A DNA stretch of 23,248 nt from a virus. Taxonomy: Duplodnaviria > Heunggongvirae > Uroviricota > Caudoviricetes. Made by a program: the position numbers and the translations under genes. The stretch lies in the IMG/VR virus record IMGVR_UViG_2537562015_000009; one strand, 5' to 3'. A model generated the notes under the pieces. It saw nothing but the letters and a program-made list of their open reading frames with translations. It ran no database searches and was not told where the DNA came from. Below are positions 3,974-22,438 of the stretch, one piece after another; positions within the stretch are counted from its first letter, which is position 1, and the number at the start of each line of letters is the position of its first letter.

Positions 3974-4177
3974 TTACGGTGCTGTTTTAAGTCCTGCCGG
4001 GATTTCGTTATTATCCTGGTGAATAACTTTATCGACCGGATAACAGTTACCGGGAATTTTCTGCTCCACTGCGGCAACCATGCATTCTTTCATTGAGCCG
4101 TATACGCCAGTAACCATGTCAACCGGTTCACCGGAAACAAGAAAAACCGTCAGAACAAGTGCAAATGTTGTATTCAT
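3974..4177 (-). CDS. Small hypothetical protein with N-terminal hydrophobic segment (signal/TM-like)
   Basis: ATG at 4175-4177 overlaps the stop of the upstream gene (ATGA coupling); AAGGA 9 nt upstream; MNTTFALVLTVFLVSGEP.. hydrophobic N-terminus; the track ORF extends to 4231. Confidence 0.45.
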   Translation of the reverse strand: MNTTFALVLTVFLVSGEPVDMVTGVYGSMKECMVAAVEQKIPGNCYPVDKVIHQDNNEIPAGLKTAP

Positions 4178-4362
4178 TGCCAGCATCCTTTTTGCATCAG
4201 GCGTAAACGGGCCAGCATTGAAACAATGCATATTTTATCCAATAGCTCCCGTTCTTGTTTCCTCTTGTTAATGGCATCTTCAGTAAATACTGGGTTACTG
4301 ATAGTGACACCAATTTCAAAACAACCTTCAGACGTATTAACGTTTGGTAATAACGTTTTCAT
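4174..4362 (-). CDS. Small hypothetical protein (62 aa)
   Basis: Internal ATG at 4360-4362 is preceded by strong RBS GAGGGTG (7 nt spacing); the track ORF start at 4461 has no RBS. Confidence 0.5.
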   Translation of the reverse strand: MKTLLPNVNTSEGCFEIGVTISNPVFTEDAINKRKQERELLDKICIVSMLARLRLMQKGCWQ

Positions 4363-4915
4363 TATCGCACCCTCAACAATGAATTTTGTGATGCGGTGCC
4401 TGGTGCCTCCAGGTGACGTTAACCAGTTAACAATTAACGCCGGATACAGAACCCCACCCATAACTTGGTTTTAACTGTTCCGCGTGCGCTTAGCCGCATT
4501 CACCGCATCACAAAATTCACTTTAAAAAGGACGGCAGAGCAGTCACGGAGTAAAACTGATACCGCCAAACGCCACCAGAAAATTGATAACAGAGGGCGTT
4601 GCAGCGGGGTTGTCACTTAAGCGCATGGTCAACCTGACAACCCGGTGTCTCAATGGGGGAGGAATAACCCCGCCATACTTACCGCCGCGCCATTTCGCGG
4701 AGTGCCACAACCGGAAGCGCACGGTCGACGAAAATTTAACGACAGGCTATCTATGAACCAACTACCTCGCCGTGCGCTTTCGCGTTATGCCCTGACTTTT
4801 CAGGAAAATGCCCTTTCAGTAAACTGTCAGTGCCGGATGCTCACCCGTGTCCGGCGCACGCACTCCACCTCACCCGTGGAGAACCCCTTAATTACCAACC
4901 CTCAGGAGGGTGAAA

Positions 4916-5136
4916 TGACTAGTAAAAATGTAAATATCCAGTTTAACCACGATGTTTCTCCTGCTGGACTTGCGGATGATCTCACCGCTATAAAAACGGC
5001 AATTATGCTACTTGCTGCTAAGTTGCCTGCGTCATCAAAGCCAGCGGAAATTTGTGACTCATTGCGTAAGATGAATTCAACAAAATGCAATGAGATGGCA
5101 TCACTTATTGAAAGTGCAATTGATTTTAATGATTAA
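4916..5136 (+). CDS. Small hypothetical protein (73 aa), convergent with neighbouring minus-strand gene
   Basis: ATG at 4916 preceded by GGAGGG (4903-4908); the upstream part of the 4645..5136 track ORF has no start/RBS; 3' end overlaps minus-strand gene 5126..5500 by 11 nt. Confidence 0.45.
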
Positions 5137-5500
5137 TCGAAATTTCATGGCTAACTGTAACCCTCCCATCTGTGGCGGGATGGTTTAAATCGCTGGGATT
5201 AATGCCGCACTCAGTAAAATGGTTCTTAAGGGGTTCTATCCGAATCCCTTTCTTTTTCATTAACAAGCCAAACCCCTTATCAATGATATCCATTAATTCC
5301 AGGAAGTATTTTTCATGTAAATCCTGGCTATCAGAGAGCCGCTTCTCTTCGTACAGACCGATAAAGGCACGACGCACGTTACCGGATATAGTATCGATGG
5401 TTTCTTTTTCTACGGTACTCAGGTCAAGAGTCGCCAGTTGGAAACGAACTATATTCGCTGCCATTTCCTGGAATTGCATTGGTAAATCTTTAAATTCCAT
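5126..5500 (-). CDS. Hypothetical protein (124 aa), early-left operon
   Basis: ATG 5498-5500 with GAGG 7 nt upstream; AT-rich; no motif recognised. Confidence 0.6.
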   Translation of the reverse strand: MEFKDLPMQFQEMAANIVRFQLATLDLSTVEKETIDTISGNVRRAFIGLYEEKRLSDSQDLHEKYFLELMDIIDKGFGLLMKKKGIRIEPLKNHFTECGINPSDLNHPATDGRVTVSHEISINH

Positions 5501-5522
5501 TATTAGCCTCGTTGGTTAGCTA

Positions 5523-5741
5523 TTAACGTGGGTATGTAATCATTCTGGCAATGCTTAATGCCGCTGCTTTTTCCAGCCTGGTGATATCCTGCTCCAGAGC
5601 GGACAGATTTTCAGCCTGCTTAGCCCTGGCTTCATTGGCCCATTTCAGATCCTGCGCTGCATTAATTTTCTGGCGCATCCACTCATAAAGTTCATCATCG
5701 GTATAGTCTGGCGCGATGATGACGGGTTCTCGTTTCTGCAT
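5523..5741 (-). CDS. Hypothetical protein (72 aa), first gene of early-left operon
   Basis: ATG 5739-5741 with GAGGA RBS (6 nt spacing); roughly 200 nt leader back to the pL-like promoter; no Arg-rich N-like motif. Confidence 0.6.
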   Translation of the reverse strand: MQKREPVIIAPDYTDDELYEWMRQKINAAQDLKWANEARAKQAENLSALEQDITRLEKAAALSIARMITYPR

Positions 5742-5932: not shown

Positions 5933-5961
5933 AAGGTAACAAGTGTTACCTTTCGAGTCAA
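5933..5961 (-). promoter_or_regulatory. pL-like leftward promoter overlapping operator palindrome GGTAACAAGTGTTACC (5935-5950)
   Basis: Minus strand -35 TTGACT (5956-5961), 17 nt spacer, -10 TACCTT (5933-5938); perfect 16 bp palindrome GGTAAC-N4-GTTACC in the spacer; same half-sites as the two sites at the cI/cro junction. Confidence 0.45.
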
Positions 5962-5995
5962 TGCAATGTTGCAAAAAGTACATTTGAGGGCGTGA

Positions 5996-6019
5996 AAAAC
6001 CCGCAATGAATGCGGGTTA
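5996..6019 (-). terminator. Intrinsic terminator after repressor gene
   Basis: Minus strand reads CCCGCA-TTCATT-GCGGG followed by TTTTT, 5 nt downstream of the cI-like stop. Confidence 0.5.
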
Positions 6020-6023
6020 TGAC

Positions 6024-6698
6024 TCAGTCTAAGTATTGATGTATTTGTGAAACTTTACCTTTAATGGTGTAACCACCATTCAGTTCGATGGGTTTGTAAA
6101 GCGGATTCAGTGACAACAGATAGATGTTTGGTCCGTCAATCGCAACTTTTTTTAGTGTTACGTTTGGCGTTCCTTCCAATTGGATTAAGATTATTTTTCC
6201 CACCAGTTCTCTAATGTTACTTGAGCATGGTGTGATCAGCACGGTAGATCCGTCGGGGATGGTTGGGAGGCCGTTAGAGTTTGTCATCGCATCTCCCTCA
6301 ACATGCAATAAAAAAGAGTTTTCAGCGGTTTTTGTCATGACATCAACCCAATTCTTAATACCAGGAATCTCGGTTACTGGACAACTCATATCCCAATAAC
6401 CAGCCTGTTCCCACGTTAAAACGGGCAACCGGGCGATGTTGTCACTAATGTAAAGGTACTGATTCAGACGCAGATCATCGGTTTTATCGTGACCGTCCTT
6501 TCCATAAAGAATCCATTCAGGAGATTTGGAAAGCAATTTTGACAGTAGATGCAAATTCTCACCGTCAGGTTTTGAAGAGCCATTTTCCCATTTTGTTACG
6601 GATACACGAGATATGCCGATTGCTTTCGCAACCTGCTGTTGGGTTAATCCAACGTCTTTTCGACGATTCCGAATACGTTCGCTGATAGTGTTTTTCAT
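6024..6698 (-). CDS. P22 C2/lambda CI-like repressor (N-terminal HTH, C-terminal S24 LexA-like peptidase domain); catalytic Ser replaced by Ala
   Basis: N-terminus from ATG 6696-6698 (MKNTISERIRNRRK..) parallels P22 C2 (MNTQLMGERIRARRK..); Ala-Gly cleavage site present (..WEQAGYWDM..); S24 motif reads GDAM (Ala codon GCG at 6288-6290) instead of GDSM; Lys of the dyad present (TLKKV); the track ORF extends to a TTG at 6797. Confidence 0.8.
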   Translation of the reverse strand: MKNTISERIRNRRKDVGLTQQQVAKAIGISRVSVTKWENGSSKPDGENLHLLSKLLSKSPEWILYGKDGHDKTDDLRLNQYLYISDNIARLPVLTWEQAGYWDMSCPVTEIPGIKNWVDVMTKTAENSFLLHVEGDAMTNSNGLPTIPDGSTVLITPCSSNIRELVGKIILIQLEGTPNVTLKKVAIDGPNIYLLSLNPLYKPIELNGGYTIKGKVSQIHQYLD

Positions 6699-6760
6699 GT
6701 AACCAATGTTACTACCAAGTGATGTTGCTATGGTTGACATTGTAATGTAACTATTGTTAC
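6699..6760. promoter_or_regulatory. Immunity switch region: two operator palindromes GTAAC-N4-GTTAC (6699-6712, 6747-6760) with divergent promoter elements
   Basis: GTAACCAATGTTAC abuts the cI start codon; GTAACTATTGTTAC lies between plus-strand TTGACA (6734-6739) and the cro RBS; candidate leaderless PRM -10 TAACAT inside the first operator. Confidence 0.45.
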
Positions 6761-6789: not shown

Positions 6790-7005
6790 ATGTTCAAAGA
6801 TGATGTTCTGCGCTATTTCAAAAAAAAGCGACTAGTAGCTGAGGCTCTTGGAATTTCACATGTGGCTGTTGTGCGGTGGAAAGCAGTTATTCCCAAACTT
6901 CGCGCAATGGAACTGGATGAAATTACTAACGGTGAATTGAAATACAACCCAGAACTTTACAAGAAGCAGGATAGCACCTCGAACGAAGGAAAGAATGATT
7001 CATGA
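6790..7005 (+). CDS. Cro-like HTH regulator (YdaS-like)
   Basis: 71 aa, ATG 6790 with GGAGAG RBS; divergent from repressor; HTH-like ..AEALGISHVAVVRWK.. Confidence 0.7.
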   Translation: MFKDDVLRYFKKKRLVAEALGISHVAVVRWKAVIPKLRAMELDEITNGELKYNPELYKKQDSTSNEGKNDS

Positions 7006-7427
7006 AAATCAAGCATGAACACATCCGCATGGCGATGAATGCCTGGGCGCGTCCTGATGGCGAAAAAGTTCCAGCAGCTGGAATAACCCAGGCTTATTTT
7101 GAGTTGGGTATGACGTTCCCAGAACTGTATGACGACAGCCATCCGGAAGCCCTGGCTCGTAATACCCAGAAAATTTTCCGCTGGGTAGAGAAAGACACCC
7201 CTGATGCAGTTGAAAAAATTCAGGCGTTGTTACCAGCGATCGAAAAGGCAATGCCACCTTTGCTGGTGGCCAGAATGCGCAGCCACAGTTCAGCTTATTT
7301 TCGGGAGCTGGTGGAGACGCGGGAACGACTGGTGAGAGACGCTGATGATTTTGTCGCAGTGGCGATCGCTGGTTTCAATCAGATGAATCGTGGTGGCCCG
7401 GCAGGAAATGCCTTGGTGATGCACTAA
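7002..7427 (+). CDS. YdaT-like / CII-position regulatory protein
   Basis: 141 aa, ATG overlaps cro stop, AAGGAAAG RBS; N-terminus MKIKHEHI.. and position after the Cro-like gene resemble Rac YdaT (from memory, not verified). Confidence 0.5.
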   Translation: MKIKHEHIRMAMNAWARPDGEKVPAAGITQAYFELGMTFPELYDDSHPEALARNTQKIFRWVEKDTPDAVEKIQALLPAIEKAMPPLLVARMRSHSSAYFRELVETRERLVRDADDFVAVAIAGFNQMNRGGPAGNALVMH

Positions 7428-15300: not shown

Positions 15301-16065
15301 ATGGAAGAACAGCACGGTAATTACTTTATAAAACGAATTCAGTTGATTGGAAGGGGTGCATTTGGCTTTGTTGAACACGTTAAGGTTTACAACCTCAACA
15401 AGGGTGAATGTGGGGATTATGCTAGAAAGGTTTTAGCCCCCGAAAAACCAGAGCTTTTGGCGCAAATAGAGCAGTTTAGAAGGCGTTTTAAAAGGGAGGT
15501 CGTGTATCAATCACATTGCGTACATAGCAATATTGTTCCTATTTATTTGTGCGATTTGTTTGCCGAGAATCCATGGTTCATTATGGATAAAGCAGAATGT
15601 GATCTTGAGCACGAAATAACGAACAACCTTCTTACAACAGATCAAAAAATTTCAATAGTGAAAATGGTATTAGATGGTGTAGCTCACATCCATGCGAAAG
15701 GCTATTTACACAGAGATATAAAACCATTTAATGTCTTGCGATTTAGCGACGGAACATACAAGGTGTCTGATTTTGGTCTGGTAAAAGATACAAATCCCGA
15801 AGGGGATACCACTAAATTGACCGAGATCGGTACCCGTATGGGAAGTACAAGATATATGGCTCCCGAGATTTTATATAATGCCGAGTATTCAGTTAAGACT
15901 GATGTTTATGCGGTGGGGCGGTTAATTGAGGACTTAAATTTAGATGATAAAAAAATAAAGCCTATCATAGCGAAGTGTACCAGGATGGATAAAGATGATA
16001 GATATCAGACAATAGATGATGTGGCGTTTGATTTTGTGCATTCTTTTTTAAGGAGTGAGTCATGA
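15301..16065 (+). CDS. Eukaryotic-like (Hanks-type) Ser/Thr protein kinase, single-domain
   Basis: G-loop IGRGAFGFV, Lys in YARKVL, catalytic loop HRDIKPFN, DFG in VSDFGLV, APE in YMAPE; 254 aa from ATG 15301 (GGTGAG RBS); AT-rich relative to flanks. Confidence 0.85.
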   Translation: MEEQHGNYFIKRIQLIGRGAFGFVEHVKVYNLNKGECGDYARKVLAPEKPELLAQIEQFRRRFKREVVYQSHCVHSNIVPIYLCDLFAENPWFIMDKAECDLEHEITNNLLTTDQKISIVKMVLDGVAHIHAKGYLHRDIKPFNVLRFSDGTYKVSDFGLVKDTNPEGDTTKLTEIGTRMGSTRYMAPEILYNAEYSVKTDVYAVGRLIEDLNLDDKKIKPIIAKCTRMDKDDRYQTIDDVAFDFVHSFLRSES

Positions 16066-16805
16066 TTCAGCTGATAGCGACTTCATCATTCTCGTATCCA
16101 AAAGAACCAGGTAGGGTCAACGAAGATTCATTGCTTCCTCCCAAAATTGTAGGGGATGGCATCTTATTTGCCGTAGCTGATGGTGTAGGTTCATACACTG
16201 GTGCCAGTCAGGCTTCATCAATGGCAATTGCTGAACTTTCAGCATTGACAAGCTTATCTTTTGACACAGTTCCGGATGTATTTGATGAAGTTAAGCGAAA
16301 GGTTATGTCGTTAGCTGATGTTAATGATGAGTTCGATAAAGCTGCTACTACACTTACGTTTTGTTATGTTTGTGATAGCGGAATTATTATTGGTCATATT
16401 GGTGATTGTCGTTTGTATTGCATTGGAGAGAAGAAAGCATACCAATTGACGAAGGACGATACCAGGCATCAGATGCTAATTGATCAGAATATTTTTAAAC
16501 CCAGAGATTTGAAGGATAAACCGGGCAAAAATATCTTAACGACGGCTATAGCCTCAAATGTTGATATGGAATACGACTGTGATTTTATCACATGGAAAGA
16601 TTTACCTAGTATTAACGGGGTATATCATCTGTGTATCATGTCTGATGGGGTTCATAACGTTTGGGAAAAACGCCCCAGATTTACATCAAATACGATGAGT
16701 AATAGTCAGAAGTTTTCTAATGGCATTTTGCGTCGTATAGAGAGAGCCGGACCTGATGATGACTTTTCTTTAGTAAGTATAATGGTGCGTGTGACGTCAG
16801 ATTAG
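16062..16805 (+). CDS. PP2C-family (PPM) Ser/Thr protein phosphatase
   Basis: Motifs RVNEDS, FAVADGVGS, GHIGDCRLY, IMSDGV, GPDDDFS; ATG overlaps the kinase stop (ATGA), so probably translationally coupled. Confidence 0.8.
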   Translation: MIQLIATSSFSYPKEPGRVNEDSLLPPKIVGDGILFAVADGVGSYTGASQASSMAIAELSALTSLSFDTVPDVFDEVKRKVMSLADVNDEFDKAATTLTFCYVCDSGIIIGHIGDCRLYCIGEKKAYQLTKDDTRHQMLIDQNIFKPRDLKDKPGKNILTTAIASNVDMEYDCDFITWKDLPSINGVYHLCIMSDGVHNVWEKRPRFTSNTMSNSQKFSNGILRRIERAGPDDDFSLVSIMVRVTSD

Positions 16806-17372: not shown

Positions 17373-18422
17373 ATGACTAATACTGTAAAAATATCCAGTT
17401 GTGAGTTGATCAACGCTGATTGCCTGAAATTTATCCAGACCTTACCGGAAAACTCTGTCGATCTGATAGTCACAGACCCGCCATACTTTAAAGTGAAGCC
17501 CGAGGGCTGGGATAACCAGTGGGAGGGCGACGATGATTACCTGAAATGGCTGGACCAGTGTCTGGCGCAGTTCTGGCGGGTACTGAAGCCTGCCGGAAGT
17601 CTTTACCTGTTCTGTGGTCATCGCCTGGCATCTGACACCGAAATCATGATGCGTGAGCGCTTTAATGTGCTGAACCACATTATCTGGGCGAAGCCGTCCG
17701 GACGCTGGAACGGGTGCAATAAGGAAAGTCTGCGGGCGTATTTTCCGGCAACAGAGCGCATTCTGTTTGCAGAACATTATCAGGGACCGTATCGCCCGAA
17801 AGATGATGGCTATGTGGCACAGGGGCGCGAGCTAAAACAGCACGTCATGGCCCCGCTGATTTCTTACTTTCGTGATGCGCGTAAATCACTGGGAATAACG
17901 TCAAAACAGATAGCGGAAGCCACCGGAAAGAAAAACATGGCTTCGCACTGGTTTGGTACCAGTCAGTGGCAGTTACCGAACGAGGGTGATTACAACAAAT
18001 TGCAGGCGTTGTTTGCGCGTGTTGCGGCAGAAAAACATCAGCGCGGGGAACTGGAAAAACCACACCACCAGCTGGTCAGCACATACAGTGAGCTGAACCG
18101 GCAGTATACGGAATTGCTGAGTGAATATAAAAATTTGCGGCGGTATTTCGGTGTGACGGCGCAGGTTCCGTACACCGATGTCTGGACGCATAAACCGGTG
18201 CAGTACTATCCAGGGAAACATCCGTGCGAAAAACCGGCAGAAATGCTGCAGCAGATAATCAACGCGAGCAGTCGTCCGGGAGACCTGGTTGCAGATTTTT
18301 TTATGGGTTCAGGTTCAACGGTAAAAGCGGCGATGGCACTGGGGCGTTGTGCGATTGGTGTTGAGCTGGAGACAGGACGTTTTGAACAGACAGTCAGGGA
18401 AGTTCAGGATTTAATCGTTTGA
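17373..18422 (+). CDS. Orphan DNA methyltransferase (beta-class N6-adenine or N4-cytosine)
   Basis: Motif IV DLIVTDPPYF near the N-terminus and motif I FFMGSGST near the C-terminus; no adjacent restriction endonuclease. Confidence 0.85.
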   Translation: MTNTVKISSCELINADCLKFIQTLPENSVDLIVTDPPYFKVKPEGWDNQWEGDDDYLKWLDQCLAQFWRVLKPAGSLYLFCGHRLASDTEIMMRERFNVLNHIIWAKPSGRWNGCNKESLRAYFPATERILFAEHYQGPYRPKDDGYVAQGRELKQHVMAPLISYFRDARKSLGITSKQIAEATGKKNMASHWFGTSQWQLPNEGDYNKLQALFARVAAEKHQRGELEKPHHQLVSTYSELNRQYTELLSEYKNLRRYFGVTAQVPYTDVWTHKPVQYYPGKHPCEKPAEMLQQIINASSRPGDLVADFFMGSGSTVKAAMALGRCAIGVELETGRFEQTVREVQDLIV

Positions 18423-18471
18423 AACGGATGAGATTGCAGAATTAATTACGCACCATTATTATTCTGCTCCC

Positions 18472-18547
18472 GGCCCTTTAGCTCAGTGGTGAGAGCGAGC
18501 GACTCATAATCGCCAGGTCGCTGGTTCAAATCCAGCAAGGGCCACCA
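18472..18547 (+). tRNA. tRNA with CAT anticodon, IleX-like (tRNA-Ile2; formally Met/Ile CAU)
   Basis: Cloverleaf with acceptor GGCCCTT/AAGGGCC, anticodon loop CTCATAA (CAT at 18505-18507), 3' CCA; near-identical to E. coli ileX from memory. Confidence 0.8.
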
Positions 18548-18548
18548 A

Positions 18549-18625
18549 CCGTCACCAGTTCATCAGGAAAGAGCGTCAACCCTTTAAGTTGAGTGTGCGA
18601 GGTTCGAGTCCTCGGTGGCGGGCCA
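18549..18625 (+). tRNA. tRNA-like gene with atypical anticodon loop (CCTTTAA; C at position 33), identity uncertain, possibly pseudo-tRNA
   Basis: Acceptor CCGTCAC/GTGGCGG (one G-U), T-arm CGAGG-TTCGAGT-CCTCG, 3' CCA; anticodon stem TCAAC/GTTGA; loop lacks the conserved U33. Confidence 0.5.
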
Positions 18626-18627
18626 GT

Positions 18628-18703
<76 letters not shown>

Positions 18704-18706
18704 TAT

Positions 18707-18781
<75 letters not shown>

Positions 18782-19159
18782 GCATTTGAAATAAGCCTTA
18801 TTGTATTGCAGCACTGGCGTATTTTTTATTACGTGGGAGCAGGTTGTTTTAAGAGACATTCTGTTCTCTGGCTATGATTTGAGGCCAGGTTAGCCTCAGT
18901 GCTGATTTTTTTTACGACAGCAGAATGGTGCATTATCGGTGGAGATTTTGTATTTCCTGGCAGGGTCGGTAATGCATCATTCTGATGTTGTAAGCATCGC
19001 TCAGAATAACGTTGAGATTAATCGCGTACTAAGCAAAACTTGGAAATACATCCTTAACCGCCGCACCAGGCGGTTTTTTTTATTCATTTTTTTCATGGCT
19101 CGCTACGGCGGGCCTTTTTCATATCCTCGCCACACCCGGCGCATATCACATCAAATATG

Positions 19160-19402
19160 GCTTACAGCCGTGTGTCGACTTTCTCCGGGGATTATCTCCG
19201 CGTAACTGACAACAAGGGGAAAACGCACGACGTGCTGACCGGAAGTGATGACGGTCGCCACAGCAATACCTCTCTGGCGTGGGGAGCTGGCGTGCAGTTT
19301 AACCCGACCGAATCCGTGGCCGTTGATGTCGCTTATGAAGGCTCCGGCAGCGGTGACTGGCGTACCAACAGTTTCATCGTGGGTGTCGGCTATAAATTCT
19401 GA
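19160..19402 (+). pseudogene. lom: lom (Lom/Ail/OmpX-family outer membrane protein), 5'-truncated remnant
   Basis: Encodes only the C-terminal part, ..AYSRVSTFSGDYLRVTDNKGKTHDVLTGSDDGRHSNTSLAWGAGVQFNPTESVAVDVAYEGSGSGDWRTNSFIVGVGYKF, matching lambda Lom residues from about 127 to the end; no N-terminal coding sequence upstream. Confidence 0.7.
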
Positions 19403-19428
19403 TTAGCCAGGTAACACAGTGTTATGAC

Positions 19429-19455
19429 AGCCCGCCGGTTCAGGCGGGCTTTTTT
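19429..19455 (+). terminator. Intrinsic terminator after lom remnant
   Basis: AGCCCGCC-GGTTCA-GGCGGGCT followed by TTTTTT. Confidence 0.6.
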
Positions 19456-19468
19456 GTGGGGGGGGAAT

Positions 19469-22438
19469 ATGGCAGTACTGATTTCAGGTGTACTGAAAGA
19501 CGGTGCAGGTAAGCCGATACAAAACTGCACCATTCAGCTAAAGGCCAGGCGCAACAGCACCACGGTGGTGGTGAACACAGTGGCCTCAGAAAATCCGGAT
19601 GAAGCCGGGCGTTATACAATGGACGTCGAGTATGGTCAGTACAGCGTCAGTCTGTTGGTGGAGGGGTTCCCGCCGTCACACGCCGGGATTATCACCGTAT
19701 ATGAGGACTCAAAGCCTGGCACACTGAATGATTTCCTCGGTGCAATGACGGAGGATGATGCCCGTCCGGAGGCACTGCGCCGTTTTGAGCTGATGGTGGA
19801 AGAGGTGGCGCGTAACGCCTCCGCGGTGGCACAGAACACGGCAGCCGCGAAGAAGTCAGCCAGCGATGCCAGCACATCAGCCCGTGAGGCGGCAACCCGT
19901 GCGACTGATGCTGCAGGCTTAGCACGTGCCGCCAGCACGTCAGCCGGACAGGCCGCATCGTCGGCTCAGTCAGCGTCTTCCAGCGCAGGAACGGCATCGA
20001 CAAAGGCCAGTGAAGCAGCGAAAAGTGCTGCTGCTGCAGAGTCATCAAAAAGCGCGGCAGCTACCAGCGCCAGTGCCGCGAAAACGTCAGAAACGAATGC
20101 CGCAGCATCACAAAAATCGGCAGCCACTTCTGCATCCACAGCGACCACGAAGGCGTCAGAAGCTGCCACCTCGGCACGGGGTGCGGCGGCCTCAAAAGAG
20201 GCAGCGAAATCATCAGAAACGAATGCATCATCAAGTGCCAGTAGTGCAGCTTCCTCGGCAACGGCGGCAGGAAATTCCGCGAAGGCGGCAAAAACGTCCG
20301 AGACGAACGCTAAGTCTTCTGAAACAGCAGCGGGACAGAGCGCCTCAGCTGCGGCAGGTTCAAAAACAGCGGCTGCGTCGTCTGCCAGTGCCGCGTCAAC
20401 AAGTGCCGGGCAGGCCTCAGCCAGTGCCACCGCCGCCGGAAAATCGGCAGAAAGCGCCGCATCATCCGCTTCAACAGCCACAACGAAGGCTGGCGAAGCC
20501 ACTGAGCAAGCCACTGCAGCAGCGAGGTCTGCTTCTGCAGCAAAAACCTCTGAAACAAATGCAAAGACTTCAGCAGACAATGCTGCTTCCTCTAAGGCGG
20601 CAGCCGCATCGTCCGCTGGTTCAGCGGCGTCATCGGCATCATCTGCGTCTGCTTCAAAAGATGAGGCGACCAGACAAGCGTCAGCAGCGAAAGGTAGTGC
20701 CACGACAGCAACAACGAAAGCATCAGAGGCGGCAGGCAGTGCGACGGCTGCATCTCAGAGCAAAGTTGCTGCTGAATCCGCGGCAACGCGTGCCGAAACA
20801 GCAGCAAAACGGGCAGAGGATATTGCTGATGCCGTATCTCTGGAAGATGCGAGCACGACGAAAAAAGGTGTGGTTCAGCTTAGTAGTGCAACCAATAGCG
20901 CATCTGAAACGCAGGCTGCAACGCCGAAAGCAGTAAAGGCCGCGTATGACCTTGCTGGCGCAAAATATACCGCTCAGGACGCCACGACGGCACAAAAAGG
21001 GATAGTCCAGCTCAGTAGTGCCACCAACAGCACGTCTGAAACACTGGCTGCGACACCGAAAGCGGTTAAGGCGGTAATGGATGAAACAAATAAGAAAGCC
21101 CCATTAAACAGCCCGGCGCTGACCGGAACGCCAACAACGCCAACTGCGCCAAAAGGGACTAATAATACTCAGATCGCAAGCACGGCTTATGTGATGGCCG
21201 CGATTGCCGCACTTGTAGATTCGTCACCTGATGCACTGAACACGCTGAACGAGCTGGCGGCGGCGCTGGGCAACGACCCGAATTTTGCGACCACCATGAC
21301 TAACGCGCTTGCGGGTAAGCAACCGAAAGATGCCACCCTGACGGCGCTGGCCGGGCTTGCTACTGCGGCAGACAGGTTTCCGTATTTTACGGGGAATGAT
21401 GTCGCCAGCCTGGCAACCCTGACAAAAGTCGGGCGGGATATTCTTGCGAAATCGACCGTTGCCGCCGTTATCGAATACCTCGGTTTACAGGAAACGGTAA
21501 ATCAGGCTTCTGGCGCATTACAGAAAAAACAGAACGGCGCAGATATTCCGGGAAAAGATACCTTCACCAAAAACATTGGGGCCTGCCGCGCATATAGCGC
21601 ATGGCTGAATATTGGTGGCGATAGTCAGGTCTGGACAACCGCGCAATTTATTTCGTGGCTGGAGAGTCAGGGAGCATTTAACCATCCTTACTGGATGTGC
21701 AAAGGCTCATGGGCTTATGCACATAATAAGGTCATTACAGATACAGGTTGCGGAAATATTTGTCTTGCAGGTGCTGTGGTGGAAGTTATTGGCACTCGCG
21801 GCGCAATGACCATACGCGTTACTACGCCGAGCACGTCCAGCGGTGGCGGAATTACTAACGCTCAATTCACTTATATTAATCATGGTGATGCTTACGCTCC
21901 TGGCTGGCGACGAGACTACAACACGAAAAACCAGCAGCCTGCATTTGCTTTAGGGCAAACAGGACGCAGGGTCGCAAATGATAAAGCTGTTGGCTGGAAC
22001 TGGAATAGCGGTGTTTATGATGCAGATATCAGTGGTGCATCGACATTAATCCTCCACTTCAATATGAATGCGGGGAGTTGCCCTGCTGTACAGTTCCGCG
22101 TGAATTACAGGAACGGCGGTATTTTTTATCGTTCAGCGCGTGATGGTTATGGCTTTGAAGCTAACTGGTCAGAGTTTTACACCACAACACGCAAACCCTC
22201 TGCGGGGGATGTTGGTGCATATACGCAGGCAGAATGTAACTCAAGGTTTATTACAGGTATTCGCCTTGGCGGTCTGTCATCTGTTCAGACATGGAAAGGC
22301 CCCGGCTGGTCTGACAGGTCAGGTTATGTCGTTACGGGTTCAGTTAACGGAAACCGTGATGAATTAATTGATACAACTCAGGCAAGGCCAATTCAGTATT
22401 GCATTAATGGGACGTGGTATAACGCGGGGAGTATTTAA
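19469..22438 (+). CDS. stf: Side tail fibre protein (lambda Stf / StfR-like)
   Basis: From ATG 19469 the N-terminus MAVLISGVLKDGAGKPIQNCTIQLKARRNSTTVVVNT.. closely matches lambda Stf; long Ala/Ser-rich repeat region; duplicated KGxVQLSSATNSxSETxAATPKAVK motifs. Confidence 0.85.
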   Translation: MAVLISGVLKDGAGKPIQNCTIQLKARRNSTTVVVNTVASENPDEAGRYTMDVEYGQYSVSLLVEGFPPSHAGIITVYEDSKPGTLNDFLGAMTEDDARPEALRRFELMVEEVARNASAVAQNTAAAKKSASDASTSAREAATRATDAAGLARAASTSAGQAASSAQSASSSAGTASTKASEAAKSAAAAESSKSAAATSASAAKTSETNAAASQKSAATSASTATTKASEAATSARGAAASKEAAKSSETNASSSASSAASSATAAGNSAKAAKTSETNAKSSETAAGQSASAAAGSKTAAASSASAASTSAGQASASATAAGKSAESAASSASTATTKAGEATEQATAAARSASAAKTSETNAKTSADNAASSKAAAASSAGSAASSASSASASKDEATRQASAAKGSATTATTKASEAAGSATAASQSKVAAESAATRAETAAKRAEDIADAVSLEDASTTKKGVVQLSSATNSASETQAATPKAVKAAYDLAGAKYTAQDATTAQKGIVQLSSATNSTSETLAATPKAVKAVMDETNKKAPLNSPALTGTPTTPTAPKGTNNTQIASTAYVMAAIAALVDSSPDALNTLNELAAALGNDPNFATTMTNALAGKQPKDATLTALAGLATAADRFPYFTGNDVASLATLTKVGRDILAKSTVAAVIEYLGLQETVNQASGALQKKQNGADIPGKDTFTKNIGACRAYSAWLNIGGDSQVWTTAQFISWLESQGAFNHPYWMCKGSWAYAHNKVITDTGCGNICLAGAVVEVIGTRGAMTIRVTTPSTSSGGGITNAQFTYINHGDAYAPGWRRDYNTKNQQPAFALGQTGRRVANDKAVGWNWNSGVYDADISGASTLILHFNMNAGSCPAVQFRVNYRNGGIFYRSARDGYGFEANWSEFYTTTRKPSAGDVGAYTQAECNSRFITGIRLGGLSSVQTWKGPGWSDRSGYVVTGSVNGNRDELIDTTQARPIQYCINGTWYNAGSI
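19800..20830. repeat. Ala/Ser/Thr-rich low-complexity coding repeats within stf
   Basis: Recurrent GCx/TCx-rich units encoding ..KTSETNA(K/A)SS../..ASSASxA..; explains the long out-of-frame and antisense ORFs in the track. Confidence 0.7.
21468..21493. other. Putative Gin/Pin/Hin-family invertase crossover site (gix/pix-like) inside stf
   Basis: TTATCGAATACCTCGGTTTACAGGAA closely resembles the Mu gix / Salmonella hix 26 bp sites as recalled (TTATCCAAAACCTCGGTTTACAGGAA); lies at the constant/variable junction of stf, encoding ..IEYLGLQE.. Confidence 0.5.

Follow-up and report, generated by a model that had tools for sequence, protein, structure and literature searches.

The window, i.e. the entire stretch of 23,248 nucleotides analysed here, carries an E. 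coli prophage whose immunity region encodes a repressor with the following features (224-aa numbering):

6024-6698, minus strand: CI/C2-type immunity repressor, a 224-aa ORF starting MKNTISER
about 6510-6674, minus strand: N-terminal HTH_3 domain (Pfam, residues 9-63, E 2e-16)
about 6051-6425, minus strand: C-terminal S24-like domain (Pfam Peptidase_S24, PF00717, residues 92-216)
6399-6404, minus strand: GCT GGT, Ala99-Gly100, the kept cleavage-site dipeptide (WEQAGYW), aligned with lambda Ala111-Gly112
6288-6290, minus strand: GCG, Ala137, by the alignments in the S24 nucleophile column (lambda CI Ser149, LexA Ser119)
6150-6152, minus strand: AAA, Lys183 (TLKKV), the kept general base of the Ser-Lys dyad, in the lambda CI TFKKL column

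The ORF contains FLLHVEGDAMTNSNG, with the GCG codon at 6288-6290. RefSeq gives a longer form of 238 aa starting at 6740 (WP_001394126.1); we favour the start at 6698, because an operator abuts that ATG and the more distant homologs begin at the equivalent Met. The likeness to P22 C2 and lambda CI, i.e. an HTH domain followed by an S24 domain, which the initial annotation had drawn by eye, is borne out by Pfam, phmmer and Foldseek. The PF00717 profile matches the repressor with E 9.4e-17 and 61 bits (cutoff 23.3), phmmer against the PDB aligns the lambda repressor (3bdn) along the whole protein (E 1e-13), and the N-terminal part is matched by the P22 C2 N-terminal domain (E 3e-12, TM 0.96). 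Foldseek pairs the AlphaFold model (pLDDT 82.8) with the C-terminal domains of lambda CI (1kca, TM 0.78) and of LexA, the TM values for the two together spanning 0.6-0.78.

In the phmmer alignment 'hvEGDaMT' lies under lambda 'eVEGNSMT', i.e. GDAM pairs with GNSM, and Lys and Ala-Gly are in register as 'vtlKKv' pairs with 'fTFKKL' and 'ltweQAGyw' with 'FSHVQAGMF'. From this register with 3bdn it follows that Ala137 occupies the nucleophile column, as had been read from the sequence at the outset; phmmer and Pfam, the multiple alignments and the fold match all confirm this and rule out a misaligned motif. The accompanying statements hold as well: the GCG codon is one transversion away from TCG, the codon found in the nearest Ser relative, and the Ala-Gly site and the Lys of the dyad are retained, both in register with lambda CI. 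The first Lys of TLKKV is the one we take to be catalytic, by LexA K156 and lambda K192. The nucleophile column is Ser, encoded by TCN codons, in at least 70 homologs at 36-52% identity and also in 20 loci from other species, while Ala-Gly is kept in all Ala and Ser clusters and Lys183 is invariant in the alignments. Since 78 of 80 IMG/VR loci as well as independent complete genomes have the same codon, the Ala is not the error of a single assembly, and the identical codon in hundreds of independent genomes rules out a sequencing error or a one-off mutation. The repressor thus has the profile and fold, the Lys and the Ala-Gly of an S24 protein and lacks the nucleophile Ser of the G-[DEN]-S-M motif; judged by its nucleophile it would be a non-peptidase homologue, not an active S24 member. 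Dead S24 repressors made up about 1 in 5 of some 100 representatives looked at. LexA S119A and the lambda ind mutants have lost RecA-stimulated self-cleavage. A prophage of phage 933W carrying the catalytic-dyad mutant cI K178N is uninducible (PMC3610611). We regard loss of RecA-stimulated self-cleavage in the Ala repressor as a sound prediction.

The repressor gene is flanked by the following elements, the operators being predicted:

6698-6712: operator palindrome TGTAAC-CAAT-GTTAC, abutting the repressor ATG, kept in all five clusters with two base changes in Salmonella
6746-6760: operator palindrome TGTAAC-TATT-GTTAC between repressor and cro, identical in all five clusters
5935-5950: third, OL-like operator GGTAAC-AAGT-GTTACC, between the repressor terminator and the ydfC-dicF-dicB operon, which runs leftward from it
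5994-6018, minus strand: intrinsic terminator following the repressor stop, with an 8-bp GC-rich stem and a U-run (-13.9 kcal/mol, z = -3.3)
6790-7005, plus strand: cro-like gene of the YdaS/DicC type in divergent orientation, sharing 39% identity with DicC of Qin and nearly identical in a Ser-type Stx2 prophage
7002-7427, plus strand: ydaT, the CII-equivalent (phrog_163, CII-like)
4174-5741, minus strand: leftward early operon under the OL-like operator, composed of the next four entries
5523-5741, minus strand: ydfC
5126-5500, minus strand: ORF of 124 aa
4529-4580, minus strand: DicF sRNA
4174-4362, minus strand: dicB

Three palindromic operator sites are found in the window against 0.14 expected by chance, and both the operators and the recognition helix are kept across Ala and Ser clusters; a sigma-70 consensus scan of the repressor/cro region gave no matches and is uninformative. 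The function of the ydaT family is known (PMC9986795), and the homologous leftward operon of Qin, the regulation of which has been described, encodes cell-division inhibitors being toxic if derepressed (PMC10448788). The Cro/C1-type HTH, the divergent cro and the predicted operators between both genes and at the leftward promoter are those of a lambdoid CI/C2 repressor. The setting is lambdoid too, with int/xis, replication genes, Q and late genes, the latter absent in the window and present in the relative L003. A full-length relative, likewise at ompW, has about 30 kb between its tRNA genes and tail fibre gene that the window lacks, in agreement with the early statement that lysis and morphogenesis genes have been lost.

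Most repressors of this immunity type carry the Ala allele. The repressor gene is present in 702 of 5,426 complete E. coli genomes and the exact 81-mer with GCG in 642 of them, numbers being inflated through clonal sampling, e.g. of ST131 and O111; Ala-type carriers account for about one E. coli genome in eight (about 12%) in this collection. Ala is fixed in three clusters formed at 90% identity, i.e. c1 from E. coli and E. albertii, c2 from E. coli and c4 from Salmonella, every member read being Ala, encoded by GCG in the E. coli Ala clusters and by GCA in Salmonella. Among the prophage contexts inspected (five Ala and four Ser, two of the latter over 15 kb only), the allele resides in full-length prophages (strain 4/4, strain C8) and in decayed ones alike. 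It adjoins no fewer than three types of integrase. Identity within the c1 allele exceeds 99% even between remote E. coli lineages and E. albertii, irrespective of which of three integrase types and two tail types goes with it, implying recent horizontal spread. No isolated phage in INPHARED has a repressor more than 60% identical, which is weak evidence because the rarer Ser forms are absent from phage collections, too. In the literature searched we found no description of a natural Ser-to-Ala or dead S24 prophage repressor, which does not prove that none has been published, and the literature on ompW-site prophages and on ST131 prophage induction yielded no induction data for Ala-allele carriers.

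Comparison with orthologous repressors, as proposed in the initial annotation, shows that most carry Ala, that the O55:H7 and Stx2 types carry Ser and that Ala is not specific to the window's element. The Ser relatives are of two types, one from O55:H7 prophages (WP_000104592.1) and one from Stx2a/Stx2d-converting prophages (WP_024173670.1, WP_028985609.1); for the latter type all three genomes examined carry it in Stx2a/Stx2d prophages, O178:H19 and other STEC being the hosts. They are found in 8 + 8 complete E. coli genomes compared to about 686 of the Ala type. With 87% (Stx2 type) and 97% (O55:H7 type) identity to the Ala repressor, they share identical operators, the conserved recognition helix, a near-identical cro and the same flanking gene order. 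Unlike the window's prophage, the Ser-type prophages examined are full-length and carry toxins or effectors. The Ser codon is TCG in the O55:H7 type and in Enterobacter and TCA in the Stx2-phage type.

Purifying selection acts on the Ala background, with a dN/dS of about 0.1. For c1 against c2 repressors, the gene as a whole gives a dN/dS of 0.11 and its C-terminal part one of 0.10, dS being 0.53-0.62. The 83 c1 loci segregate for 32 synonymous and 11 nonsynonymous variants, the latter mostly in the linker and none at Ala137, Lys183 or Ala-Gly. In the gene tree the Ser-bearing forms are placed between Ala clades, from which it follows that codon 137 has changed its state at least three times. 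A scan limited to a single genome for each species yielded distant relatives with Ser only; it would fix Ser as the ancestral state and gave nothing further on the Ala clades. The Ser codon of the O55:H7 type has c1-like flanks and is TCG, not TCA; gene conversion from the Stx2-type allele as its source was rejected, as no donor-like tract flanks the codon.

From the observed sequence features, distribution, selection pattern and shared operators we infer loss of cleavage, operator occupancy, trans-dominance and a selective reason for the allele. We consider it likely that the Ala repressor is a natural, trans-dominant 'Ind-' repressor, SOS-proof, with a catalytically dead S24 domain and three operators, representing an old, recurrent and selected state and no decay lesion. 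According to this model the S24 domain would be catalytically dead and structurally intact, most likely being kept for dimerisation and cooperative operator binding, and the repressor would bind the three GTAAC-N4-GTTAC operators, silencing both early operons, cro-ydaT-replication genes-Q to the right and ydfC-dicF-dicB-exo-xis-int to the left. The Ala repressor would be unable to attack its own Ala-Gly bond; activated RecA would therefore fail to inactivate it, and the early operons would stay off during SOS. For the window's prophage this would result in an SOS-proof silencing of toxic early genes and in an SOS-proof, trans-dominant immunity against same-operator phages, including Stx2-converting ones with a Ser repressor.

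The Ala repressor would be the natural counterpart of laboratory ind- alleles. In lambda cI ind-, LexA S119A and 933W cI K178N a dyad residue is replaced in an otherwise intact protein as it is here, the substitution in LexA S119A (PDB 1jhh/1jhc) being identical, and the phenotype expected of such dyad mutants is uninducible and trans-dominant (PMC3610611). The laboratory alleles were engineered or selected, whereas the Ala allele is natural, frequent, old, recurrent and under purifying selection. With lambda CI and P22 C2 (MEROPS S24) it shares the HTH_3 and S24 domains, Ala-Gly, Lys, a divergently oriented cro and operator palindromes at each of the two early promoters. It differs by having Ala in place of the Ser nucleophile and ydaT in place of a lambda-type cII as the neighbouring lysogeny-establishment gene, and its identity to CI is only about 25-30%. 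DicA (Qin), RacR (Rac) and PaaR2 (CP-933P) are SOS-blind and have the same immunity architecture and the same leftward ydfABC-dicF-dicB operon; DicA is the SOS-blind repressor of a related YdaS/YdaT-type immunity region (PMC10448788), and PaaR2 does not respond to mitomycin C, its switch being bistable and SOS-independent (PMC8630535). These three lack an S24 domain and cleavage site, whereas the Ala repressor keeps the domain with one residue changed.

The retention of Ala-Gly and Lys, which are useless for a dead enzyme, counts against the Ind- model; each Ala lineage may be young, or reversion may occur. It is difficult to see how the c1 allele could have spread horizontally in recent times if its phage were never inducible; some induction route, such as stochastic switching, an antirepressor of a co-resident prophage or recombinational module exchange, probably exists.

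The need for such a route speaks for an alternative, which we judge unlikely, namely that Ala-type phages are SOS-inducible indirectly, by a LexA-controlled antirepressor of the same or a co-resident prophage as in Gifsy, Fels, 186 and N15, the S24 domain serving as a scaffold. Like immunity architectures use antirepressors, e.g. Rem acting on DicA (PMC10448788), and the N-terminal domain of the repressor is 54% identical to that of DicA; the strain C8 prophage ends beside ORF6N-domain genes, and, as a rule, an E. coli strain harbours several of the lambdoid prophages. However, the RefSeq annotation of the near-identical locus contains no antirepressor-domain gene, and no Rem homolog is present in the window or in the annotated full-length prophage of strain 4/4. 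Those of the window's unannotated small ORFs that were scanned against PHROGs gave no antirepressor match and no function, antirepressors being diverse and possibly acting from other prophages. Scanning the window with CTGT-N8-ACAG and with a position-weight matrix built from known SOS boxes identified no LexA box beside a small ORF; the sole strong LexA-box-like site lies within the coding start of a DNA methyltransferase. With this single site, no Rem homolog and no function from PHROGs, a LexA-controlled antirepressor in cis appears unlikely in the window as scanned. Moreover, the known antirepressor-controlled repressors (Gifsy GfoR/GftR, DicA with Rem) are short and lack the C-terminal S24 domain and Ala-Gly; the Ala repressor, keeping the full domain with Ala-Gly and Lys, differs from them in this respect.

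The Ser-to-Ala change was initially taken to fit a domesticated element, i.e. to be a degenerative lesion specific to the window's decayed prophage, fixed once this was no longer a phage. The window's prophage is indeed defective, two further carriers examined are decayed as well, and a host would gain if toxic early genes stay off. This reading is nevertheless improbable and already largely refuted: the same allele (0-7 differences per 675 nt) is found in full-length prophages, in hundreds of genomes and with three integrases, it is under purifying selection, and Ala is likewise found in the diverged clusters c2 and c4, encoded in c4 by a different codon. Because the majority allele is this widespread, reaching E. 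albertii and Salmonella, the substitution predates the deletion in the window and is independent of it.

That the Ala repressor is still cleaved, be it by another internal nucleophile or by an S24 partner in trans that has the Ser (homoimmune Ser repressor, LexA, UmuD), would explain the strict conservation of Ala-Gly and Lys across all Ala lineages and could draw on the intermolecular cleavage known for LexA/CI C-terminal fragments and within UmuD dimers and on possible mixed oligomers of the 87-97% identical Ser and Ala repressors, but is highly improbable. In all S24 proteins studied so far, cleavage is lost upon the Ser-to-Ala change, S-to-A forms trap uncleaved complexes (PDB titles 1jhh, 6a2s, 8s7g), Ser-type partners are rare (about 16 of roughly 700 carrier genomes) and the sole nearby hydroxyl, the Thr of GDAMT, has a non-catalytic counterpart in lambda GNSMT.

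Textbooks describe SOS induction via self-cleavage of the repressor as the route through which lambdoid prophages, Shiga-toxin phages included, are woken. Under the Ind- model, a very common E. coli immunity type would carry a natural, selected active-site knockout of this route. If the predictions hold, many resident prophages would be blind to DNA damage while keeping their S24 domain, which bears on antibiotic-triggered prophage induction and on the prediction of inducibility from annotation, because all such proteins are labelled 'LexA family protein' or 'S24 peptidase'. Ala carriers would then have immunity against one class of Stx2 phages and, when co-lysogenised, suppress the induction of these, and the repeated Ser/Ala change would offer a natural system for the single-residue resolution of the conflict between phage and host over induction.

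More tentatively, codon 137 might act as an evolutionary toggle, a single T/G transversion repeatedly converting an SOS-inducible Ser form into an SOS-blind Ala form and back, with the common Ala prophages being trans-dominant, damage-proof blockers of homoimmune Stx2 phages. The switch would be reversible because Ala-Gly and Lys remain intact, and because all forms share their operators, Ala prophages could block superinfection, induction and toxin production in trans. If this were true, Ala prophages would constitute a host-beneficial 'anti-induction' factor that could modulate the emergence of STEC and their Stx output.

A phmmer search against PDB sequences aligned the full-length repressor with the lambda repressor 3bdn (E 1e-13), pairing HVEGDAMT with VEGNSMT, TLKKV with TFKKL and WEQAGYW with HVQAGMF and thereby confirming the by-eye alignment of the initial annotation, i.e. 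Ala in the nucleophile column with the Lys and the Ala-Gly retained. In Pfam, the N-terminal part of the protein is assigned to HTH_3 (E 2e-16) and the C-terminal part to Peptidase_S24 (E 9.4e-17, far over the gathering score).

Repressor gene and active-site positions (the last three from the lambda alignment)
6024-6698, minus strand: repressor ORF, 224 aa
start at 6740, minus strand: RefSeq form of the repressor, 238 aa (WP_001394126.1, 'LexA family protein')
6288-6290, minus strand: Ala codon GCG in the nucleophile column
6150-6152, minus strand: general-base Lys, kept
6399-6404, minus strand: Ala-Gly scissile site, kept

The AlphaFold model (pLDDT 82.8) matches lambda CI over its entire length as well as in the C-terminal domain alone (TM 0.75-0.78). 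It further matches the DNA-binding domain of P22 C2 (TM 0.96) and LexA C-terminal domains; the repressor fold is intact.

Among 78 homologs obtained from 5.8 billion proteins, three clusters carry Ala: that of the repressor itself (499 members, 99% identity), another from E. coli (89%) and one from Salmonella enterica (70%). Ser is present in a third E. coli cluster (about 87-88%), an Enterobacter cluster (66%) and all of the approximately 70 more distant homologs. All cluster members read match their own representative, and those from E. albertii, which belong to the main Ala cluster, are no exception. The gene occurs in 702 and the exact GCG-centred 81-mer in 642 of 5,426 complete E. coli genomes, both counts being affected by clonal sampling, and the best 80 IMG/VR loci carry GCG in 78 and TCG in 2 cases. 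INPHARED holds no phage record with a repressor more than 60% identical, which is weak evidence as this is true of the rarer Ser forms too. Nine genomic contexts were inspected. The Ala allele accompanies at least three integrase types (ompW, rspB/ydfJ, yccA/serT). It is found in decayed prophages (the window, O111:H8 at serT/yccA, strain Z0117EC0133) and, with the codon checked, in full-length prophages of strain 4/4 (siphovirus-type late region) and strain C8 (contractile-tail late region).

The residue alternates along the gene tree, a simple neighbour-joining tree of few lineages, in which the lineages nest in exactly the order listed here.

Codon and residue in the nucleophile column
Enterobacter: TCG, Ser
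Salmonella: GCA, Ala
Stx2-phage type: TCA, Ser
E. coli cluster 2: GCG, Ala
O55:H7 type: TCG, Ser
main cluster: GCG, Ala

The O55:H7-type Ser allele differs from the main cluster at only 22-23 of 675 nt and the Salmonella cluster is a clear outgroup to the three E. coli clusters (dN 0.25 versus 0.06-0.07); a Fitch count therefore gives at least three changes of state at this codon under any resolution of the near-trichotomy. Among 222 sites, a single further one with two states requires three changes, a conservative exchange of Ser and Thr at residue 30 (224-aa numbering; approximately 6609-6611, minus strand). This residue belongs to the HTH sequence GI[S/T]RVS immediately ahead of the recognition helix, and its pattern over the six lineages is unlike that of the Ser/Ala site. 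Short recombination events are a possible source of the Ser/Ala changes; no conversion tract was found flanking the O55:H7-type Ser codon. In 20 of 20 distant relatives from other species the residue is Ser, encoded by TCN, so Ser is the ancestral state.

Comparison of the main cluster with E. coli cluster 2, both Ala, gives dS 0.53 and dN/dS 0.11, and for the linker and C-terminal domain dS 0.62 and dN/dS 0.10, the latter being no higher than the 0.08-0.10 of Ala-Ser cluster comparisons. The 23 alleles of the main Ala clade, read from 83 loci, segregate for 32 synonymous and 11 nonsynonymous variants, the nonsynonymous ones mostly in the linker and none at Ala137, Lys183 or the Ala-Gly. The predicted catalytically dead repressor is thus kept by purifying selection. 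This speaks against decay of the pseudogene kind and in favour of the C-terminal domain still having a function, which by analogy to lambda CI is most plausibly oligomerisation.

The initial annotation had interpreted the Ser-to-Ala exchange as rendering a domesticated element non-inducible. While the exchange itself stands, this interpretation holds only in part, as a lesion of a domesticated element is contradicted by the full-length carriers, the wide distribution and purifying selection. The window element is indeed defective: compared to the full-length relative in strain 4/4, also at the ompW site, it is missing the approximately 30 kb that separate the tRNA genes from the tail-fibre gene there and encode lysis, head and tail functions. 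Up to 19157 it is 99.88% identical to the prophage beside ompW in E. coli O6:H16 2014EL-1346-6 (NZ_CP024232.1); past this position it is without approximately 950 bp present there (window 19157-19663 versus 33658-35119 of the extracted locus) and identity falls to 97.7% in the tail-fibre region, so the window stems from a different, though closely related, genome. The 1004-aa tail-fibre ORF (19424-22438) is intact in the window, whereas RefSeq annotates fragments in the NZ_CP024232.1 strain.

Three GTAAC-N4-GTTAC palindromes were found in the window versus 0.14 expected by chance.

Putative operators and neighbouring features
6698-6712: putative operator palindrome between repressor and cro, abutting the ATG at 6698
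6746-6760: putative operator palindrome between repressor and divergent cro
5935-5950: putative third operator palindrome, just beyond the repressor terminator and upstream of the leftward operon
5994-6018: intrinsic terminator of the repressor
6790-7005: cro, divergent from the repressor
4529-4580, minus strand: DicF sRNA (Rfam, 70.8 bits), part of the leftward operon, as is also the case in Qin

Because a palindrome abuts the ATG at 6698 and the more distant homologs begin at the corresponding Met (MKT), 6698 is probably the true start and the RefSeq start wrong; the extra 14 codons of the latter (6699-6740, MSTIATS...) overlap the operator region. The leftward operon contains ydfC, DicF, dicB, exo, xis and int, and the rightward order is cro, ydaT, the CII equivalent (PMC9986795), replication genes and Q. 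DicA of the K-12 Qin prophage is 54% identical to the N-terminal domain of the repressor and DicC 39% identical to the cro protein; the switch is a relative, with a full-length repressor, of that formed by DicA and DicC.

The Ser type 84% identical in nucleotides (about 87-88% in amino acids) is present in eight complete genomes and is the repressor of a Stx2a- or Stx2d-converting prophage in all three inspected (O178:H19 2012C-4431, STEC434, JNE170426). The 97% Ser type, in eight genomes that are mostly O55:H7, belongs in CB9615, the one inspected, to a full-length prophage at rspB/ydfJ carrying NleG7. In Ser-type relatives the stx2 genes (L004, the O178:H19 prophage, 18556-19796; L117, 2168-3408; L118, 10250-11490) directly follow the same methyltransferase-tRNA block that the window has at 17373-18778; the window prophage is thus a toxin-less, late-gene-deleted counterpart of an Stx2-phage backbone. 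Operator sequences, with one Salmonella site differing at two bases, and the recognition helix [ST]RVSVTKWE are common to all five clusters and the cro proteins are near-identical, so Ala- and Ser-type elements should form one immunity group.

The S24 nucleophile is essential for RecA-stimulated cleavage and autodigestion, as known from LexA S119A and lambda ind mutants, and according to PDB titles Ser-to-Ala forms of LexA are stable enough for crystals and still dock on RecA filaments. In phage 933W, cI K178N results in an uninducible prophage (PMC3610611). By analogy, the Ala repressor would escape inactivation by RecA*, so that PR and PL would stay repressed under SOS, and the allele would be trans-dominant over Ser-type homoimmune phages. 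For the defective window element this would provide damage-proof immunity and damage-proof silencing of dicB/dicF and other early genes. Of the related YdaS/YdaT- or DicC-type switches, that of PaaR2 is SOS-blind and bistable (PMC8630535) and that of DicA-Rem antirepressor-controlled (PMC10448788); PaaR2 and DicA have lost the entire S24 domain, whereas here a single residue is changed instead.

The main-cluster allele keeps an identity of more than 99% between distant hosts (E. albertii among them), between integrases and between late regions. The repressor module has thus moved recently, and a route into lytic growth therefore probably exists for full-length Ala-type phages. As candidates for induction in cis, neither an antirepressor domain in the annotation or in a PHROGs scan of unannotated small ORFs, nor a Rem homolog, nor a LexA box adjoining a small ORF was found. 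Stochastic switching is possible, as is induction by antirepressors of co-resident prophages: candidates for trans-acting antirepressors are ORF6N-domain genes with which the C8 prophage, full-length and Ala-type, ends on the right (L093 49457-49901) and a 'phage antirepressor N-terminal domain' gene within the lysis cassette of the Ser-type CB9615 prophage (L094 28212-28781). Module exchange by recombination is a further possible way into lytic growth. Cleavage of the Ala repressor in trans by a Ser-bearing partner, an unlikely alternative, would account for the kept Ala-Gly and Lys.

Uncleavable CI-type repressors are already known as laboratory mutants and domain-less natural relatives. We found no paper on the Ala allele, its frequency or the Ser/Ala alternation in the literature; new are, as judged from sequences, a natural single-residue form, its high frequency, purifying selection and recurrence, and the predicted homoimmunity with Stx2 phages. 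Approximately 100 full-length representatives were compared, from those 50%-identity clusters that resemble the query most (30-46% identity). Ser+Lys is present in 80 of them, Ala+Lys in four besides the query, Thr+Lys in five and other combinations in about a dozen, most of these being without the Ala-Gly too. Predicted dead S24 repressors thus recur, which agrees with MEROPS listing non-peptidase homologues.

A strong LexA-box-like 20-mer, TACTGTAAAAATATCCAGTT, at 17381-17400 (plus strand) lies within codons 3-9 of the N6/N4 DNA methyltransferase gene of the prophage (17373-18422). It scores 23.6 with a matrix of approximately 21 E. coli SOS boxes, which themselves range from 12.8 to 27.2 in training (next best window site 12.1), and is conserved in Ala-type (the strain 4/4 relative, L003, and prophage L010) and Ser-type Stx2a (L004) prophages; it could mean that the methylase is SOS-regulated, or be a chance match within coding sequence. 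Directly downstream of Q, an overlapping pair at 15226-16805 (plus strand) encodes a Ser/Thr protein kinase of eukaryotic type (Pkinase, E 3e-33) together with a PP2C phosphatase, is absent from L003 as annotated, and may be a cargo or defence module. A sok antitoxin RNA (11435-11610, plus strand; Rfam, 121.6 bits) adjoins hokD, followed by a toxin gene of the Fic/Doc family (12165-12659), which has a small ORF upstream.
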